Assembly (NCBI GenBank): GCA_963664225.1
Contig: OY760937.1
Location: 448,001 to 512,000 of the forward strand
Length of the DNA: 64,000 nucleotides
Reading direction: 5' to 3'
Origin: Verrucomicrobiia bacterium
Lineage (GTDB): Bacteria > Verrucomicrobiota > Verrucomicrobiia > Limisphaerales > UBA1319
Shown: positions 5,407-12,864 of the stretch, piece by piece
Layout: every line of letters begins with the position of its first letter
Numbering within the stretch: position 1 is the stretch's first letter
Program-made: the position numbers and the translations under genes
The notes under the pieces: model-generated
What the model was told of the DNA's origin: nothing
Seen by the model: only the letters and a program-made list of their open reading frames with translations
Database searches by the model: none

Positions 5407-5450
5407 AAAAGGGTCCGTTTGGCAAATCAAAATGCTGAACGGACCTTTTT
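5407..5450. terminator. Bidirectional terminator between convergent genes
   Basis: AAAAGGGTCCGTTTGGCA...TGCTGAACGGACCTTTTT inverted repeat with A and T tails. Confidence 0.75.
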
Positions 5451-5451
5451 A

Positions 5452-6858
5452 TTATTTGCGCGCGAGCGCTTCAGAGGCCGGTTTATCTGCGGCATCGGCC
5501 ACTTGAGTGGGAGGCGCCAGAGAGGATAAATAATCACCCAGCGCCTGGACTTCATCGGGGGTGCCGACCATGGGAGGCATAAAGGCGCGATAAGGAGAGT
5601 CTGGTTTGTAATCGTGCAGAATCTTGAGGAGACTGCTGATGGCTTCGCGATTCCTGCCCGCCAGCAGACGTTTCATGGGACGATAGACATCCCGCGTATG
5701 GCAGGCCAGGCACTGACCACGAAAAATGGCTTCACCCCGCGCAAAAGTGTTCGTGGTAGCCGCTCCCTGGGCGACCCATAAAGTGTGCTTGAGATAGCCT
5801 TCCGCATTGATCTTCGCTACGTCGCTTTTTCGTACTCCGTTGGAGAACATGTGCTGGCCGATCACGTAGGGTTTGCGGAGCATCTCGCGGGCGTATTCGG
5901 TGGAGGCCGTCGCCATCAGCGCCAGAAACATCACGGCCAATGCGTGCGCGCGACTGAAATCGTTCGGCGTGCGCCAGGCGAAGAAATACACGACACCGGA
6001 TATCGTGGCCGAGGTCATGACGATGATCAGCACGGTGCGGGTGACCTGCGTGAACGCCCCGGTGCCAATGGTCGATATGCCGAATTGGAGCAACGCGCGC
6101 TGGCCCTCAGGCACCATCCACAAAAACCACGCCAGGCAAAACGGCATCAGCAGAAAAGCGGGGACGAGCCATTTGGCGCTCCAGCGCACGAGTTCCGTTT
6201 TAAGTTTGGCATTATTGGAAATCTCGATGCGGCTGCAGTTGAACAGCGCCCAAACACCGGCGAGCGATACGCAGGCCAGCGCCCTCAAGAACAGGCTTGG
6301 CCAGTAGGTGGGGTTAAAGAACGCCTGCCAGAATCGGCTGGCTTCATGGCCTGTGCCCGCGACTTCCAACCAGGATCCTCCGGGCGTGAGCATGAAGGTC
6401 AGAATGCCGTTGATGATGACCAGCGTGAAGATCGAGGCGACGGCATAGACGTAGCCAATCTTTAAATGCAATTCCTTCGAGACCCGCCCCCAAGTGTAGT
6501 AATAAACCGCCGCCGTGGTCAGCTCGACCATGAAGAAGACCCACTCGATGGCCCAGCCGAAGACGAAGTTGTGAATCAACGTGCTGGTGGCTTCGGGATT
6601 CGTGAGTCCAATGGAAAACCAGATGCCTACACCCGACACGGCTCCAAACACGCCGGTCAGCACCAGAAAGAACTTGGAGTGTTTGTGCAGGATTTCGAGC
6701 CAGTCCTTGCGGCCCTCGCGCAAGGCCTTGCTTTCCGCCATCGGCAGATAAAGGCCGCCTCCCACCGCAAAGTGGGAAATCATGACGTGAAAAATGGCTA
6801 TGATGCCAATCACCCAACCGCTGCCCAGGTGGGGAACATCCCAAAACGGATAATTCAT
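5452..6858 (-). CDS. Cytochrome bd subunit I (CydA)-like membrane protein fused to a C-terminal c-type heme domain
   Basis: CydA-like motifs IFHV, GAVSGVGI, WAIEWVFF, INGILTFMLTP, REMLRKPY; C-terminal CLACH plus FMPP (candidate distal Met). Confidence 0.75.
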   Translation of the reverse strand: MNYPFWDVPHLGSGWVIGIIAIFHVMISHFAVGGGLYLPMAESKALREGRKDWLEILHKHSKFFLVLTGVFGAVSGVGIWFSIGLTNPEATSTLIHNFVFGWAIEWVFFMVELTTAAVYYYTWGRVSKELHLKIGYVYAVASIFTLVIINGILTFMLTPGGSWLEVAGTGHEASRFWQAFFNPTYWPSLFLRALACVSLAGVWALFNCSRIEISNNAKLKTELVRWSAKWLVPAFLLMPFCLAWFLWMVPEGQRALLQFGISTIGTGAFTQVTRTVLIIVMTSATISGVVYFFAWRTPNDFSRAHALAVMFLALMATASTEYAREMLRKPYVIGQHMFSNGVRKSDVAKINAEGYLKHTLWVAQGAATTNTFARGEAIFRGQCLACHTRDVYRPMKRLLAGRNREAISSLLKILHDYKPDSPYRAFMPPMVGTPDEVQALGDYLSSLAPPTQVADAADKPASEALARK

Positions 6859-6886
6859 ATTACAACCAACATGTTAAAATACTTCA

Positions 6887-7966
6887 TTAGATCGCCAGAT
6901 ATCCCCAGACGGTTGTCACAATCGTCCCGATGAGCACCGCCAGACCGAAATAAGTGGCCACACGCGCGCGTCTTCCCGCAGGGGACTTGATGTTGTAAAG
7001 CGGCACCAGCATCCACAAAACGATGCCCAACGTGAATACGCCCATTCCCAGGAATTCACCCGCCACGCCGGGCACCCAATCGCCCAGCACCTTCAAGACT
7101 TGGAATTGGCTCATGAAATACCATTCCGGATGGATGCCTTTTGGCGCGGGCTTGAGGGAATCAGCCTGCACGCCCAAATCCCACGGAAACAGCGAGGCCA
7201 GCAGCGCGAGAATGTTCAGTGCGATGAGCCACATGGCCAGATCTTTGGCCATGAAATTTGGGAAAAACGGAATGCTCTTGCGCTCCGCCGGCGGTTTCAA
7301 TTCCTCCGAAGGGGGCACGGCATTTCCGTGTTTTTGCACGAGCCAGAGATGAAATCCGAGCAACGGCAGAAACAGCGCGGGCAGCACAACCACATGCAGG
7401 GCGAAGAACCGCTGAACGGTGAATTCGTTCACCTCAGTGCCACCGCGCGCCAGCGTGGCGATCGTATGTCCCAAAACAGGCATCGATTCGGGAATGGCCA
7501 GGCCGACTTTGGTGGCGAAATAGGCCAGTTCGTTCATCGGCAGCAAGTAGCCGCTGAATCCGAATACCATCGAGAGCATTAGTAATCCCATGCCGCTCCA
7601 CCAGCCGAATTCGCGCGGCTTCTGGTAGGCTTTCATGAAATAGACCGAGAACATATGGATGAAGATCGACGCAACCATCAGGTTCGCCGCCCAGGAATGG
7701 GCCGAGCGTATCAGCCAGCCAAAATTGATCTCGAAGGTCAATTGACGCACCGATTCAAACGCGTCCGGCCCGGGGCGGTAATAGACCAGCAGCAGCACGC
7801 CAGTGAAGGCTTGCACGAGGAAGAAAAACAGCGAGAGCCCGCCCCAGTAATACCAGGCGGAATGGCGATGGAGCGGGACGGTTTTCTTGCTGGCAAAATG
7901 AACCAAATCGGCCAGTCCCAGCCGGTCGTCCATCCAATGGTATATCGATCCCATCAACGCTTTCAT
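6887..7966 (-). CDS. petB: Cytochrome b of a Rieske/cytochrome b complex (b6 and subunit IV fused)
   Basis: Four heme His ligands (SAHSW, FIHMF, ALHVV, FHLW), FSGYLLP, PFFPNF, PEWY. Confidence 0.92.
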   Translation of the reverse strand: MKALMGSIYHWMDDRLGLADLVHFASKKTVPLHRHSAWYYWGGLSLFFFLVQAFTGVLLLVYYRPGPDAFESVRQLTFEINFGWLIRSAHSWAANLMVASIFIHMFSVYFMKAYQKPREFGWWSGMGLLMLSMVFGFSGYLLPMNELAYFATKVGLAIPESMPVLGHTIATLARGGTEVNEFTVQRFFALHVVVLPALFLPLLGFHLWLVQKHGNAVPPSEELKPPAERKSIPFFPNFMAKDLAMWLIALNILALLASLFPWDLGVQADSLKPAPKGIHPEWYFMSQFQVLKVLGDWVPGVAGEFLGMGVFTLGIVLWMLVPLYNIKSPAGRRARVATYFGLAVLIGTIVTTVWGYLAI

Positions 7967-8019
7967 CGGTTGCCCTGGAAAAAGTTAAATGTCATATCGC
8001 TCTTGTTTAGCGCTCTTGT

Positions 8020-8499
8020 TTAGGCGCGGGAAACGACCACCCCATCGGGAGTCACTTTGGCGTTGTAGCGTTTGAGGGGACGCGGCGGCGGGCCGCTGAC
8101 ATTTCCCCCGGTTTTGGGATCATAAACGCCGCCGTGGCAGGCGCAATGTATCCGGTTTTGCGCCGCCTCATATTCGACCGTGCATCCCAGATGAGTGCAG
8201 ACCGCGTCCAGCGCGACCCACGAATCATCCGCATGATGAATCAGTAAGGCCGGTTTCGAGCCAAACTTGAACATGAGCGAGGTGCCCTTGCCGAGTTTTT
8301 CGGCGTCTTTAAGGGTTACTTCCGTCACGGCTGTGGCATTTTCGGAGCGTTCCACAGGCGAGGCGAGATACCGGTAAACCGGGTATCCAATGGCCGCCGC
8401 GTAACACGCCCCCACGCCGCCCAAGGCGACACGAACAAAGGTGATCCGGCTCATTAAATCCGGCGCCGGTGTGTTGATTGCTGCTGGTTTATTCTTCAT
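8020..8499 (-). CDS. Rieske [2Fe-2S] protein
   Basis: CTHLGC and CACHGGVY boxes, GPPPRPL loop, Tat-like N-terminal anchor (SRITFV). Confidence 0.92.
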   Translation of the reverse strand: MKNKPAAINTPAPDLMSRITFVRVALGGVGACYAAAIGYPVYRYLASPVERSENATAVTEVTLKDAEKLGKGTSLMFKFGSKPALLIHHADDSWVALDAVCTHLGCTVEYEAAQNRIHCACHGGVYDPKTGGNVSGPPPRPLKRYNAKVTPDGVVVSRA

Positions 8500-9611
8500 C
8501 AGGCGACTTTCTCAGAGACGGGTTTTGCATTTCTGGTGACCCACACCAGCCAGGCGACCGTCGCCAGTCCGGCCACAAATAAAAACAGGAACAGCCCCAC
8601 AACCGACCAGTTGGTTTCCACCTGGCGGTTCCAGACATCCAATCCCTTGCCTGCGAGGGTCAAATCGCGGATTCCATCGCGGAACATCGTCCAGGCAAGC
8701 ATTCCCACCAAACCGCAGATACCTGCGATCCATCCCAGGGCCTTGCCGGTTGGTTTTGCGAATGCAGACCAAATTCCAACCAGAAAAACCAGTGCGGCGA
8801 TTCCAAACCCGACGTAAGCCGCTATTTGATAGACCGGGTTGGACGTGAGGCCCTGACGCACGGTTTCCGGTTGCGCCTGGAAAACCTTCCAGGCCACGAA
8901 GGATTGAACGATGACCATGACCACGGCGATGCGGCCGCCATTTCCTGACAGAAAACTGCGGACATCTCCGGAGAGATTTTTGCGGCCTGCCAGATAAAGC
9001 ATCCACAGACCCGCCATCGTTAAACCGCCTGTGATCATGAATCCCCAGCGCGCCATCGAGGTGGCATCATGCGGCGGCAAATGGGCGCCAATGCCCGAGG
9101 CCGAATACATCTGATTCCACACTTCGGGCCGCAGCATCAAGGTCATGTTTGTGGTGTAAATCTTGGCGATGCTGGCAGCCAGCAGCCACGAAACCAGACC
9201 CAAGGGCCACGCGGTCCGGCCCGACTCGATGCGCGCGGCAAATTGATAAAGCAGCCAGTAACAGGCCATGAGGAGGAAAACCACGCCAATCCAATAGACG
9301 CCAATCAGGATGCTGCTGGTGTAGAGGGCGCGTCCGTAGAGCACCTGCGCGAACAACAGCGGCGGAACCCCCAGGTTGATCACATAGGTCATGACGATGG
9401 GCAGACGCCGCGCCATCGTCGATGCGGCGTTCAAATGCACCGCCGAACCGCTCAATTTGCCACGAAAACTCAGCCACACCGCCACCAGTATTCCACCGAG
9501 CATCATTTCCACGGAAATGAAATGGAGCGCCAAAGTGAGAATATGCAGCGCCTTGAACATCCAGACCGGCGCGGGCAGGGGAATGGGATCGACAGCGGGG
9601 AATAGGTTCAT
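8499..9611 (-). CDS. Polytopic membrane protein, probable second (CydA'-like) subunit of a bd-like oxidase
   Basis: About 9-10 TM helices; His in helix 1 (ALHFIS), INLGVPPLLFAQVLYG, late FRDGIR paralleling the AREMLR motif of 5452-6858. Start placed at ATG 9611 (MNLFPAVDP). Confidence 0.55.
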   Translation of the reverse strand: MNLFPAVDPIPLPAPVWMFKALHILTLALHFISVEMMLGGILVAVWLSFRGKLSGSAVHLNAASTMARRLPIVMTYVINLGVPPLLFAQVLYGRALYTSSILIGVYWIGVVFLLMACYWLLYQFAARIESGRTAWPLGLVSWLLAASIAKIYTTNMTLMLRPEVWNQMYSASGIGAHLPPHDATSMARWGFMITGGLTMAGLWMLYLAGRKNLSGDVRSFLSGNGGRIAVVMVIVQSFVAWKVFQAQPETVRQGLTSNPVYQIAAYVGFGIAALVFLVGIWSAFAKPTGKALGWIAGICGLVGMLAWTMFRDGIRDLTLAGKGLDVWNRQVETNWSVVGLFLFLFVAGLATVAWLVWVTRNAKPVSEKVA

Positions 9612-9797
9612 GGGTTCACGAGGTGGGCAGGCCGGAGCGACGCAAACCCGCACATTTCAAAGTGCGGGAGGCGCGCCTTGGGCTCAGCGGTACTCCGGTT
9701 ATTGAGAACGATTTTCATATCGATTGGAGCGAACTTTATCATAAAACCAATATTGTGCAAATTAACTATAATAATGCAAACAATAATAAACCATAAT

Positions 9798-9829
9798 AAA
9801 AAAACACCCCCGGTTTTGGAGGTGTTTTT
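9798..9829 (-). terminator. Terminator of the 9881-10405 gene
   Basis: On the minus strand AAAAACACCTCC-AAAACC-GGGGGTGTTTTTTT. Confidence 0.7.
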
Positions 9830-9880: not shown

Positions 9881-10405
9881 TTAGTTGCTGATCATGGGAC
9901 AACCATCCATATACCCTTTCCCCCTGCCCCATCCCATGCCCATTCCACGTCCACAATTGCGTCCATGGCGACCACGTTGCATTCCGAATGGATCCATCCG
10001 TTGTAAAAAAGTCTGGTCTGCGGCGCCAAGGGTGCCAGCCGCTTTTTTTGCGTTTAACGCTGCAACGGCCGGGCACACGGGGGCTGTTGTGCCAAACGCC
10101 TGCGGGGTAAACGCACGACCAGCTCCGCGCGCCGGGGTGCCGGTGATGCAAATACCGCCGCGTTGTTCAGCCTTGTCGAGCCAGGCTTGTTCGGCCGCAT
10201 TGAGGGTTCCAGCAGCTTTTTTGGCGCGCAAAACTGCAACGGTGGTTTGCATTAGTTCGCGGCGCTGAGAACGTTGTTCAGAGCTCAGGCCCAGTCCCCG
10301 GCCCCTTTCCAGGGACGGCAGGGGATTGGTCTGTGCGTTGACATCTGCCATCAGGGCGACCAACCCTGCGAGCACCGTGGCGAGGTATCGAATTCTTATT
10401 TTCAT
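9881..10405 (-). CDS. Small exported protein with an internal repeat and a Gly/Arg/Met/Cys-rich tail (CpxP/ZraP-like accessory candidate)
   Basis: Signal peptide (VNA-Q); repeat LRAKKAAGTLNAAEQAWL / LNAKKAAGTLGAADQTFL; GRNCGRGMGMGWGRG tail; divergent from a two-component system. Confidence 0.6.
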   Translation of the reverse strand: MKIRIRYLATVLAGLVALMADVNAQTNPLPSLERGRGLGLSSEQRSQRRELMQTTVAVLRAKKAAGTLNAAEQAWLDKAEQRGGICITGTPARGAGRAFTPQAFGTTAPVCPAVAALNAKKAAGTLGAADQTFLQRMDPFGMQRGRHGRNCGRGMGMGWGRGKGYMDGCPMISN

Positions 10406-10513
10406 GATATTCTCTTTCTCTTTTTGTTCATACCAGGAAACGCCCTGGAATCTCTGTCTTCACTATAAATAGACTCCCCCTTTGTTAAGCTTTCGTGTGC
10501 AAGCGGCAGGAAT

Positions 10514-10532
10514 ATTGTAAAGGGATTGTAAA
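10514..10532. promoter_or_regulatory. Candidate OmpR/CpxR-family binding site
   Basis: Direct repeat ATTGTAAA-GGG-ATTGTAAA (11-bp period) in the divergent promoter region. Confidence 0.5.
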
Positions 10533-10609
10533 AGTTGGAGCATTCCTGAAATGGATGCCATAATGTGAATTGGAGATCACCGGGAATGTGCGATGTCGGA
10601 CGCTGCATC

Positions 10610-11377
10610 ATGAATGAACCAAAGCATGCTCAAAATGTTCGGGAAACGGATGCGGAGGGCCGTCACCGTCTTTTGATGATCGATGATGACCGGAAATTGT
10701 GCCGCCTCATCAGGGATTACCTGGAACCGCTCGGTTATGAGGTTCATGCCGTTTACACGGGGCCGGATGGTTTGCAGAAGGCGCTTGGAGAGACATGGCA
10801 GGCGGTGCTCCTGGATGTCATGCTGCCAGGGATGGATGGCTTGGAGGTTCTCAAACAGATTCGTGCGAAATCCGATGTTCCGGTGTTGATGCTGACCGCG
10901 CGCGGAGAGCCGCCGGACCGTATTGTCGGTTTGGAGTTGGGCGCGGACGATTACCTGCCAAAGACCTTTACCACGCGCGAATTGCTGGCCCGCCTGCGCG
11001 CGGTGATCCGTCGAAGTGCGATCCAGAAACCAAACGCAGTGGGGCAGGGGGCGGAAGAGTTGGTTGTGGGCGGTTTGCGGATTCTTACCGGACCACATCT
11101 GGCTACCTTCGGGGATCAACCGCTCTCGCTGACTCCCGTGGAATATGATTTGTTACTGGCACTGGCGCGGGCCAAGGGCCGGGTGAAAACGAGGGAAATG
11201 CTTTTGGAGGATATTCGGGACCGCCAGTATGAGGCGTTTGACCGGTCCATCGACGTGCACATTTCATCTTTGCGCAGGAAGTTGGGGGACGACCCGAGGA
11301 CGCCCCGATATATCCGCACGGTGCGCGCCGCTGGTTATATGCTGGTCGATCCCCGGGAACCTGACTTTGAGCCATGA
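10610..11377 (+). CDS. OmpR/CpxR-family response regulator
   Basis: Receiver (IDDD, LLDVMLPGMDG, GADDYLPK) plus winged helix (RSIDVHISSLRRKL, IRTVR). Start placed at ATG 10610. Confidence 0.93.
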   Translation: MNEPKHAQNVRETDAEGRHRLLMIDDDRKLCRLIRDYLEPLGYEVHAVYTGPDGLQKALGETWQAVLLDVMLPGMDGLEVLKQIRAKSDVPVLMLTARGEPPDRIVGLELGADDYLPKTFTTRELLARLRAVIRRSAIQKPNAVGQGAEELVVGGLRILTGPHLATFGDQPLSLTPVEYDLLLALARAKGRVKTREMLLEDIRDRQYEAFDRSIDVHISSLRRKLGDDPRTPRYIRTVRAAGYMLVDPREPDFEP

Positions 11378-12864
11378 AAACGGGACTGCCACTTTACGCA
11401 AAAATCCTGATCTGGTTTTTTCTGAACCTGCTGCTCCTGGTTCTGGCCTTTTGGATTGGCATTCGCGCGCAATTATACTCGGGATTCGATACGCTGCTTT
11501 CCGCGCGCGCGGGTGAGCGGATGCAGGTTCTGGGTGATTTGGTGGGAGGCGAGTTGAGGGACAGCCCGGTTGCCGAATGGAATCGCGTTTTGGCACGGTT
11601 CAGCGCGGCCTACAAGGTTCAACTGATTCTCTTGGACGGGAACGGCAAGGTGCTGGCGGGAGGGTCTGTTATACTGCCGGAGGCGGTGTTGAAAAGCATG
11701 GGCACTCCGGCTTCGATGAGTGTTACACGTCAGCGCGGCCGGGGCGGGCCTCCCTGGGCCGTTTCCGGCACAACCACGACCGATGGGGGTGGCATTGGGA
11801 TGGGGATGGGAGGCGGGGCGGGGTTGGGGTGGGAATTCAAGTTTTTCATTCGCACAGACAGCCCAACGCGTTACTGGGCGGGGATGCGATTGCCAGCCGT
11901 GGCGGCGGGTCATCCCGATTGGCGTCCCATCACGCTTGTGGCAGTGTCGGATTCGTTGAGCGGCGGGGGGCTGTTTTTCGATGTTGGCTCATGGCTGGCC
12001 GTGGCTGGGGCCGTGGTCGTGCTCTCCGTTTTGTTCTGGCTGCCATTGGTGCGTGGCATTACGCGCGCCACAAGCCTCATGACAAAGGCCACGGGGCAGA
12101 TGGCCGAGGGTCATTTGGAAGCCCGGGTGGAACTGCACCGGAGTGACGAACTGGGACGGCTTGCGCAATCCATCAACCTCATGGCCGGTCGTCTTGAGAC
12201 TTACGTTTCCGGTCAACGCCAGTTTCTGGGAGCCACAGCGCACGAATTATGCTCGCCGCTGGCGCGCATTCAGGTCGCCCTTGGAATTCTCGAGCAGCGC
12301 GCCTCATCGCAGGAGCAGGAACGCTTCAAGGATTTGCGCGAGGATGTCGATTCCATGTCCCGAATAGTGCATGAATTGCTGTCCTTTTCGAAAGCCTCCT
12401 TTGGCACCGCCGCGGTTCAACTCCAGTCGGTCCCGCTGTTTTCCGCGGTTGAGCGTGCTGTACAACGGGAGGTTCCACCCCCAACGACAGTCCAGATTCA
12501 CATTCCCGGGAGCCTGGCGGTGATGGCCGAACCGGACCTGCTGCAACGCGCCCTGGGCAATATCCTGCGCAACGCGGTTCGATACGCGGGCGACGCCGGG
12601 CCTGTCATCATTACGGCGGAGAAGAACGCGGATGGTGCGATCCTGTCCATTGCGGACAGTGGGTCTGGGGTGCCCGAGGAGGCGCTCCCCATGTTGTTCG
12701 ATCCGTTTTATCGCGTGGAAAGCTCCCGTTCGCGCGATACCGGCGGGGCGGGGCTTGGTCTGACGATCGTGAAAACGTGCGTTGAAGCGTGCGGAGGTAC
12801 GGTGAGTTGCCATAACCGGAAACCTGCGGGATTCGAGGTTGTGGTGAATCTGACCTGCGGTTGA
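11374..12864 (+). CDS. HAMP-domain sensor histidine kinase (CpxA-like)
   Basis: Two TM helices, HAMP (DELGRLA), H-box AHELCSPL, NAVRY, DSGSG, FYR, GAGLGL; ATGA overlap with the regulator. Confidence 0.93.
   Translation: MKTGLPLYAKILIWFFLNLLLLVLAFWIGIRAQLYSGFDTLLSARAGERMQVLGDLVGGELRDSPVAEWNRVLARFSAAYKVQLILLDGNGKVLAGGSVILPEAVLKSMGTPASMSVTRQRGRGGPPWAVSGTTTTDGGGIGMGMGGGAGLGWEFKFFIRTDSPTRYWAGMRLPAVAAGHPDWRPITLVAVSDSLSGGGLFFDVGSWLAVAGAVVVLSVLFWLPLVRGITRATSLMTKATGQMAEGHLEARVELHRSDELGRLAQSINLMAGRLETYVSGQRQFLGATAHELCSPLARIQVALGILEQRASSQEQERFKDLREDVDSMSRIVHELLSFSKASFGTAAVQLQSVPLFSAVERAVQREVPPPTTVQIHIPGSLAVMAEPDLLQRALGNILRNAVRYAGDAGPVIITAEKNADGAILSIADSGSGVPEEALPMLFDPFYRVESSRSRDTGGAGLGLTIVKTCVEACGGTVSCHNRKPAGFEVVVNLTCG

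Follow-up and report, generated by a model that had tools for sequence, protein, structure and literature searches.

We analyzed a 64,000-nucleotide (nt) stretch of the genome of a Verrucomicrobiia bacterium (assembly GCA_963664225.1, contig OY760937.1, forward-strand positions 448,001 to 512,000; the whole stretch is called the window here), in which four consecutive minus-strand genes place a Rieske iron-sulfur protein and a cytochrome b between two subunits of a cytochrome bd-like enzyme. Textbook accounts describe cytochrome bd oxidases as oxidizing quinol directly, without complex III, at a low energy yield. In the order of transcription, the four genes encode a 370-amino-acid (aa) partner subunit, the Rieske protein, the cytochrome b, and a 468-aa catalytic subunit that ends in a fused cytochrome c domain (Table 1). 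We refer to this set as the cassette.

The open reading frames (ORFs) were recovered as tightly packed as a preliminary description of this DNA had them: the stop codon of the partner gene and the start codon of the Rieske gene overlap by one base (TGATG), and the remaining intergenic gaps measure 53 and 28 nt. The longest frame of the first gene opens at a GTG (position 9653) that is not conserved, and the ATG at position 9611, which is the start conserved among 27 orthologs and the end coordinate given in the preliminary description, was taken as the start. Behind the last gene stands a long hairpin between convergent genes, likely a two-way terminator closing the operon, which is where the preliminary description had put its terminator. 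Terminator-like sites in the region numbered 12 versus 7.7 expected (standard deviation, 3.6), so that a single terminator match is weak evidence by itself. Given the close packing and the terminator-like hairpin on either side, the four-gene unit looks like a single operon. No minus-strand promoter-like site in the upstream region passed the sigma-70 scan; the AT-rich stretch within this region probably holds the promoter.

Table 1. Positions of the cassette genes, their motifs and flanking signals in the window, and of the fused frames in related loci (L097, L098, and L101)
Feature	Position	Strand or place	Evidence or remark
Partner subunit of bd-like enzyme, 370 aa	8499..9611	minus	Fold model, 27-sequence alignment; OR-C1b-like
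Rieske iron-sulfur protein, 159 aa	8020..8499	minus	PF00355, E 4.8e-14
Unsplit b6-type cytochrome b, 359 aa	6887..7966	minus	PF00033, E 3.8e-43, plus PF00032
Catalytic bd-like subunit with fused monoheme cytochrome c, 468 aa	5452..6858	minus	PF01654, E 9.4e-19; OR-C1a-like
CydA core of the 468-aa protein	6247-6816	minus	
Cytochrome c domain of the 468-aa protein	5527-5745	minus	
CLACH heme c motif	5698..5712	minus	Motif scan of four proteins
AFMPP with likely heme c ligand Met427	5572-5586	minus	Met427 at least 90% conserved in alignment
Rieske box CTHLGC	8182-8199	minus	Invariant in alignment
Rieske box CACHGG	8128-8145	minus	Invariant in alignment
PEWY of cytochrome b	7118-7129	minus	Residues 280-283
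Long hairpin, A-run before and T-run after	5407..5450	between convergent genes	Terminator scan, 18 pairs
Terminator-like hairpin of preceding gene	9800-9829	upstream of cassette	Terminator scan
AT-rich stretch with short direct repeats	9745-9799	within upstream region 9612..9829 (minus)	Presumed promoter region
Fused partner-Rieske frame	L097:6335-7999	minus	
Fused partner-Rieske frame	L098:6306-8015	minus	
Fused partner-Rieske frame	L101:4998-6662	plus	

The bd-like subunits and the Rieske/cytochrome b pair

The preliminary description had claimed that the last gene encodes a CydA homolog carrying the only heme c of the operon, that the cytochrome b has a PEWY motif, and that cytochrome c1 is missing, and each of these points was recovered. 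The 468-aa protein matched the Pfam family Cyt_bd_oxida_I over residues 15 to 204 only, corresponding to profile positions 4 to 192 of 418. Its AlphaFold2 model, with a predicted local distance difference test (pLDDT) score of 75, consists of eight long helices, joined by loops that are all short, and a small helical C-terminal domain; in a Foldseek search of the PDB with this model, ranks 1 to 10 were all CydA chains. Residues 372 to 444 gave a weak Pfam cytochrome c match (E value of 2e-4, below the curated cutoff), and the profile of the protein matched small cytochromes c, again weakly. Across the four cassette proteins there is one CxxCH, the CLACH at residue 383 of this subunit, and none in the Rieske protein or the cytochrome b. 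Cys383, Cys386, His387, and Met427 were conserved in at least 90% of 27 orthologs, the exception being one frameshifted record.

Six further residues of the catalytic subunit (His24, Glu105, Glu112, Arg192, Glu321, and Glu325) were invariant in the same 27 orthologs. His24, Glu105, Glu112, and Glu325 align with the His, the two Glu residues, and the Glu of the E-V-G-R-Q-P-W motif in the canonical CydA of the same genome (locus L093), and Arg192 stands opposite the second His of that CydA, the one that binds heme b558. We take His19, His186, and Glu445 to be the CydA numbering of the two-heme site ligands and of the lost heme b558 ligand. The Glu pair of CydA is numbered Glu99 and Glu107 by Murali, Gennis and Hemp (bioRxiv 10.1101/2021.01.16.426971). 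By alignment, the conserved residues of the catalytic subunit appear to be the ligands and proton-path residues of the bd two-heme O2 site. The quinol site appears to have been lost, with Arg in the place of the heme b558 His and no Q-loop in the model.

The cytochrome b holds both Pfam halves in one protein. Its best NCBIfam match was cytochrome b6, and that of the Rieske protein was PetC of the b6f complex, both below the curated cutoffs. His90/His104, His191/His206, and the PEWY motif were invariant in 27 cytochrome b sequences, and the His pair of helix D is spaced by 14 residues. This cytochrome b has no cysteine at all and therefore cannot carry the covalently bound heme of b6f complexes (heme ci). 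The Rieske protein has an N-terminal membrane anchor, and all four Cys and both His of its cluster boxes were invariant in 26 sequences. No match to the cytochrome c1 family (PF02167) was found in the whole 5.78-Mb single-contig genome. As a side observation, the twin-arginine motif of the Rieske protein is degenerate (S-R-I-T-F; residues 14 to 21, window positions 8440 to 8460): R-R-x-F is present in 20 of 26 Rieske orthologs, and the protein of the window and five others retain the first Arg only.

The first gene required more indirect evidence. The preliminary description had called its product CydA'-like, which is supported by the predicted fold, a shared motif, and a weak profile match, and is not supported by family assignment or BLASTP likeness. 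The 370-aa protein had no match in Pfam or NCBIfam and no BLASTP similarity to the catalytic subunit, and its profile gave chance-level matches only (best E value, 0.21) against PDB sequences. Its AlphaFold2 model (pLDDT of 83; predicted template modeling [pTM] score of 0.83) has about nine helices, and Foldseek placed CydA chains at ranks 1 to 9 in the PDB (E values of 2e-5 to 1.5e-3; template modeling scores of 0.59 to 0.65), with CydB chains next. Going by this model, the protein has a cytochrome bd subunit fold. In the 27-sequence alignment of the partner subunit, a helix-1 His30-x8-Gly-Gly is invariant, with a spacing common to the catalytic subunit, and no Glu pair is present; this His may or may not be a further heme ligand. 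Alignment of the two subunit profiles with hhalign gave a weak match (probability of 24%; E value, 8e-4). In the ESM Atlas, unnamed clusters came first and an archaeal CydA-family cluster appeared at rank 21 (score of 0.84), a lead only.

We considered the "RPEVW" of the partner subunit as a PEWY-like quinol motif and rejected it. In the hhalign alignment it lies opposite "MLTPG" of the catalytic subunit, which in turn aligns with "FMNTPQG" of Geobacillus CydA, and it is therefore a shared bd-superfamily motif and not a Qo motif. Separately, one homolog of the partner subunit (P0349, 560 aa) has a C-terminal Tll0287-like domain (PF11845; E value, 3e-28) in the place of a Rieske domain, a second type of periplasmic domain joined to the same membrane protein.

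Conservation of the cassette and its differently arranged relatives

Homologs of the catalytic subunit number more than 5,000 at an E value of 0.001 or better, and the best 120 are 68 to 99% identical; one homolog with 70% identity carries the name Fontisphaera persica. A scan of species-representative genomes gave 251 relatives, from which the best 80 loci (60 to 76% identity) were kept; since they were picked by likeness to the query, they represent one orthologous group. The linkage described initially for one genome proved to be general among them: the order partner, Rieske, cytochrome b, catalytic subunit, on one strand, was found in all 64 loci with at least 3,000 nt of upstream sequence, and the 16 short loci carry as many cassette genes as fit. 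Judging from record titles, these 80 loci come from Verrucomicrobiota, Acidobacteriota, Hydrogenedentota, Chloroherpetonaceae, Planctomycetia, Omnitrophota, Nitrospirota, and Chthonomonadaceae, so that about eight phyla are represented. A further 17 loci with the complete cassette came from a metagenome scan.

Some of these loci deviate in detail. Loci of Acidobacteriaceae, and one of Verrucomicrobia, have extra genes within the cassette (L057:3542-4306, L057:5555-5950, L073, L047, L064, L048, and L026). One insert, a 254-aa ORF resembling short-chain dehydrogenases, separates the Rieske gene from the cytochrome b gene, and the others are ORFs of 125 to 181 aa, which presumably resemble "four-helix-bundle / 23S rRNA intervening sequence" proteins. 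The catalytic subunits of L031 (titled Hydrogenedentota) and L044 (titled Nitrospiraceae) are almost identical (branch lengths of 0.019 and 0.011), and such near-identity across phyla points to a mis-binned contig or a very recent transfer.

More distant relatives of the catalytic subunit are arranged differently. In a two-gene form (L094 to L096; 31 to 39% identity), the partner gene is adjacent to the catalytic gene, no Rieske or cytochrome b gene was found beside them, and the active-site residues are kept in two of the three. One genome from the family of the window's organism (G419) carries two copies of the catalytic subunit, one of the four-gene type (74% identity) and a distant one of the two-gene type (39%), and therefore the two forms coexist as separate paralogs.

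In a fused form (L097 and L098; about 50% identity), found in the taxonomic order of the window's organism, one frame of 554 or 569 aa encodes the partner subunit joined to a complete Rieske protein (Table 1). The Rieske part retains its membrane anchor and cluster boxes, and the gene for the catalytic subunit, with all active-site residues kept, comes directly next. Further fusions were found in metagenome loci L099 to L101 and in 7 of 120 listed homologs of the partner subunit, one of them apparently frameshifted; two full-length representatives were just 45% identical to each other. With nine helices, the partner would end in the cytoplasm, and the Rieske anchor behind it would then carry the cluster domain to the periplasm, as the positive-inside rule predicts. 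Natural fusions of this kind argue for physical contact of the Rieske protein with the bd-like enzyme and, as read from sequence, are the strongest argument for it.

Cytochrome b is missing from the fused-form loci (none in the four with room downstream), and the genes flanking the fused pair in L101 are housekeeping genes. In the two fused-form genomes that were searched (92 to 93% complete), no cytochrome b, heme-copper oxidase, CydA other than the bd-like one, or unfused Rieske protein was found, absence from a draft genome meaning here not found rather than proven absent, and fumarate, nitrite, and other reductases lying outside the scope of the search. Both genomes carry a gene cluster for complex I. 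A tree of 30 catalytic subunits from the four-gene, fused, and two-gene forms, together with the canonical CydA of the window's genome, had an unresolved backbone and long two-gene branches, and gave no answer as to which architecture is older.

The remainder of the respiratory chain was surveyed in the window's genome and in other carriers. The window's genome has a cbb3 oxidase adjoining an alternative complex III, a canonical cydAB (L093; full-length Pfam match), and a quinol-type nitric oxide (NO) reductase. Elsewhere, a second Rieske gene lies directly upstream of the gene for a 622-aa cytochrome b fused to a cytochrome c (G000:C1:2589872-2591958; L090:4090-5958), which in its gene content is a separate, more conventional unit. 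Because both the alternative complex III and this second pair are present, the cassette would be dispensable as a general complex III. Among five other cassette-bearing genomes, heme-copper oxidase was found in three and was not found in two (93% and 96% complete).

A proposed quinol-to-oxidant chain and its alternatives

The catalytic and partner subunits fit the descriptions of OR-C1a and OR-C1b, respectively, in the OR-C1 branch of the bd superfamily, a branch named from genomes by Murali, Gennis and Hemp in 2021 (bioRxiv 10.1101/2021.01.16.426971); our assignment is by features. As described in that preprint, OR-C1 enzymes resemble the cassette in that only the first four helices of the catalytic subunit are common with CydA, there is no quinol site, about eight helices are followed by a C-terminal periplasmic heme c part, and a paralogous second subunit has no Glu pair. 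The authors propose a cytochrome c as the donor. The difference is that the two subunit genes of the cassette are not adjacent, here and in all 64 loci, and the Rieske and cytochrome b genes lie between them. The word "Rieske" does not occur in the main text of the preprint, although the operon contexts in its Figure 1 or supplements may show such genes. A literature search retrieved no description of an OR-C-type enzyme combined with a Rieske/cytochrome b pair, a term search of a review of bc complex evolution (PMC5600118) gave no match, and an acidobacterial O2 transcriptome paper (PMC8407424) refers to "two possible bc1 complexes" of one strain.

With canonical CydAB, including the one in the same genome, the cassette shares the fold of both subunits, the His/Glu pair/Glu two-heme site, and the lack of copper. 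It differs in having no Q-loop, Arg instead of the heme b558 His, and a partner subunit that retains its helix-1 His, and its electrons would have to enter through the fused heme c instead of directly from quinol. With b6-like Rieske/cytochrome b complexes, it shares the four His with 14 residues between the helix-D pair, PEWY, the Rieske boxes with their disulfide cysteines, the absence of c1, and the best NCBIfam matches. In contrast to b6f, its cytochrome b is unsplit and has neither a cysteine nor heme ci, and the heme c acceptor is part of the bd-like oxidase subunit; the Rieske/cytochrome b pair has no c-type subunit of its own, be it c1, f, or a fused cytochrome c. Actinobacterial bcc-aa3 enzymes are obligate III-IV supercomplexes in which a bound heme c bridges quinol oxidation and oxidase, with no soluble cytochrome c. 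The cassette, known here from its genes, would likewise skip the soluble cytochrome c step, but its oxidase belongs to the bd superfamily rather than to the heme-copper oxidases, and the bridging heme is fused to the oxidase and not to complex III. In green sulfur bacteria, the Rieske/cytochrome b complex, which is also of the b6-like kind, is described as passing electrons to a membrane cytochrome c-556 (PMC10172866).

On balance, and with moderate confidence, we favor the reading that the four genes are a single operon encoding a hard-wired respiratory chain from quinol to oxidant. Membrane quinol would be oxidized at a PEWY-type Qo site by the Rieske protein together with the b6-type cytochrome b, as the conserved motifs suggest. 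The Rieske cluster would hand one electron to the c-type heme on the periplasmic C terminus of the catalytic subunit, a step that we infer because there is no other heme c and the linkage is conserved; the fused heme c would thus replace cytochrome c1 or f. From there, electrons would pass to a bd-type two-heme site held by His24 and Glu325, where a small oxidant, most likely O2, would be reduced with cytoplasmic protons routed past Glu105 and Glu112. The 370-aa protein would be a paralogous second subunit in the place of CydB. By the textbook Q-cycle and bd mechanisms, the charge conserved per electron would be roughly double that of an ordinary bd quinol oxidase, and no copper would be needed. 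The quinol is probably menaquinol by analogy, menaquinone-7 (MK-7) being the sole quinone detected in the related genus Limisphaera according to PMC13608581.

The same wiring might serve an acceptor other than O2, such as NO, nitrite, peroxide, or another small oxidant, in detoxification or anaerobic respiration. By their record titles, the carriers include Chloroherpetonaceae, Omnitrophota, and Hydrogenedentota, which are usually regarded as anaerobic or microaerophilic; with cbb3, cydAB, and a quinol NO reductase already in the genome, a further O2 reductase looks redundant; and in what we saw of the preprint, Murali et al. report no biochemical test of the OR-C family. However, the retained residues are exactly those of the bd O2-reducing site and its proton path, and the two fused-form genomes, which have complex I, revealed no other known O2-reductase superfamily within the search scope given above. 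We thus consider a different acceptor rather unlikely. Another idea is that the operon encodes an ordinary complex III with an odd anchor, in which the fused heme c stands in for c1 and feeds cytochromes c to the cbb3 oxidase, the bd-like parts being an anchor or a relic. Some bacteria do use unrelated cytochromes c instead of c1, the operon has neither c1 nor f, and the cbb3 oxidase of this genome requires reduced cytochrome c. A relic, though, would not hold His24, Glu105, Glu112, and Glu325 invariant across phyla at 60 to 76% identity. Moreover, the cbb3 genes adjoin an alternative complex III, the second Rieske/cytochrome b-c unit is present, and heme-copper oxidase was not found in two of the five other carriers nor in either fused-form genome, all of which makes this the least credible of the alternatives, and a very improbable one.

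Two other explanations concern how the parts belong together. The core enzyme could be the Rieske protein plus the bd-like pair with a quinol site of its own, the cytochrome b being a later addition or serving another purpose instead of electron entry. The fused form speaks for this, lacking cytochrome b in its loci and in both genomes, where the only Rieske domain is the fused one, and pairing housekeeping neighbors with a fully kept active site. However, cytochrome b of the four-gene form never varies in its four heme-binding His or in PEWY, a pattern to be expected if the Qo site works, no quinol site could be identified in the bd-like subunits, and the tree leaves the older form unsettled; we see little likelihood in it. 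We are equally reserved about two separate, co-transcribed enzymes that exchange electrons by collision. Gene neighborhood by itself is no proof of binding, but the two bd-like genes invariably flank the Rieske and cytochrome b genes, the partner stop overlaps the Rieske start, and in a related clade the partner and Rieske proteins are one polypeptide.

Several observations nevertheless weigh against a hard-wired quinol-to-oxidant chain or restrict it. Three further terminal reductases for O2 or NO are already encoded in the genome. The cassette is patchy: of 300 other genomes sampled from the phylum, 4 had it, and of 150 from the order, 18 did, which fits an accessory or niche role; the same patchiness, combined with the high identity across phyla, suggests that the cassette has moved as one unit. 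Support from sequence for the paralogy of the two bd-like subunits is weak (hhalign 24%, no BLASTP match). Support for a stable association of the subunits is indirect, coming from synteny and from fusions in relatives, and heme types and acceptor are not features that can be read from sequence. Finally, the fused relatives lack cytochrome b, so that a Rieske protein can apparently serve a bd-like enzyme without a bc-type Q-cycle. The proposal of the preliminary description is thus partly supported. Of the outcomes that it had named as refuting, the two that sequence can address did not occur, both large proteins having the cytochrome bd fold and the four-gene linkage being kept, and its wiring fits the lack of a c1 match, the single heme c motif on the bd-like subunit, the invariant active site, and the fusions. 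In view of the fused relatives, its "obligate bc-bd supercomplex" may describe the whole family too narrowly.

A wider possibility, which we put forward only tentatively, is that the Rieske protein is a built-in subunit of the bd-like enzyme, which would then be a copper-free respiratory oxidase of a distinct class. The minimal form, made of the partner-Rieske fusion and the heme c catalytic subunit, would oxidize menaquinol without cytochrome b and act as the sole terminal oxidase of some small-genome Verrucomicrobiota, and the four-gene form would be the same enzyme having gained a Q-cycle with cytochrome b. If true, the two-gene fused enzyme implies a new kind of quinol-oxidizing site. The fused form, without cytochrome b, is in any case a two-gene system suited to testing the idea.

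If the hard-wired chain is correct, a bd-type site fed by a Rieske/cytochrome b pair would be a third way of building the end of an aerobic chain, copper free and with roughly twice the yield of an ordinary bd oxidase. Thousands of homologs of the catalytic subunit occur in genomes and metagenomes, largely of hard-to-grow soil, peat, and freshwater bacteria. In databases, the catalytic subunit is labeled "cytochrome bd ubiquinol oxidase subunit I," and every named homolog of the partner subunit is labeled "hypothetical protein." With such labels, metabolic reconstructions probably mistake the cassette for an ordinary bd oxidase accompanied by an ordinary bc complex.

Neighboring genes and candidate regulatory sites

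Upstream of the cassette, a minus-strand gene (9881-10405) encodes a 174-aa family-less protein with a signal peptide, internal repeats, and a Gly/Met-rich tail. It is divergent from the genes of an OmpR-type response regulator and a HAMP histidine kinase (10565-12864, plus strand). We rejected the 174-aa protein as a cassette member, as it occurs in none of the 80 related loci and is set apart by a terminator-like hairpin. Being missing from all of these loci, the unit is probably separate and envelope-stress-like rather than a regulator of the cassette. A 69-aa ORF (10402-10611) with no Pfam or NCBIfam family was likewise rejected as a member. Just 5' of the first start codon of the cassette lies a 10-nt inverted repeat (9647-9668), which, together with the direct repeats of the AT-rich stretch, may represent candidate regulator sites, though both could be due to chance.

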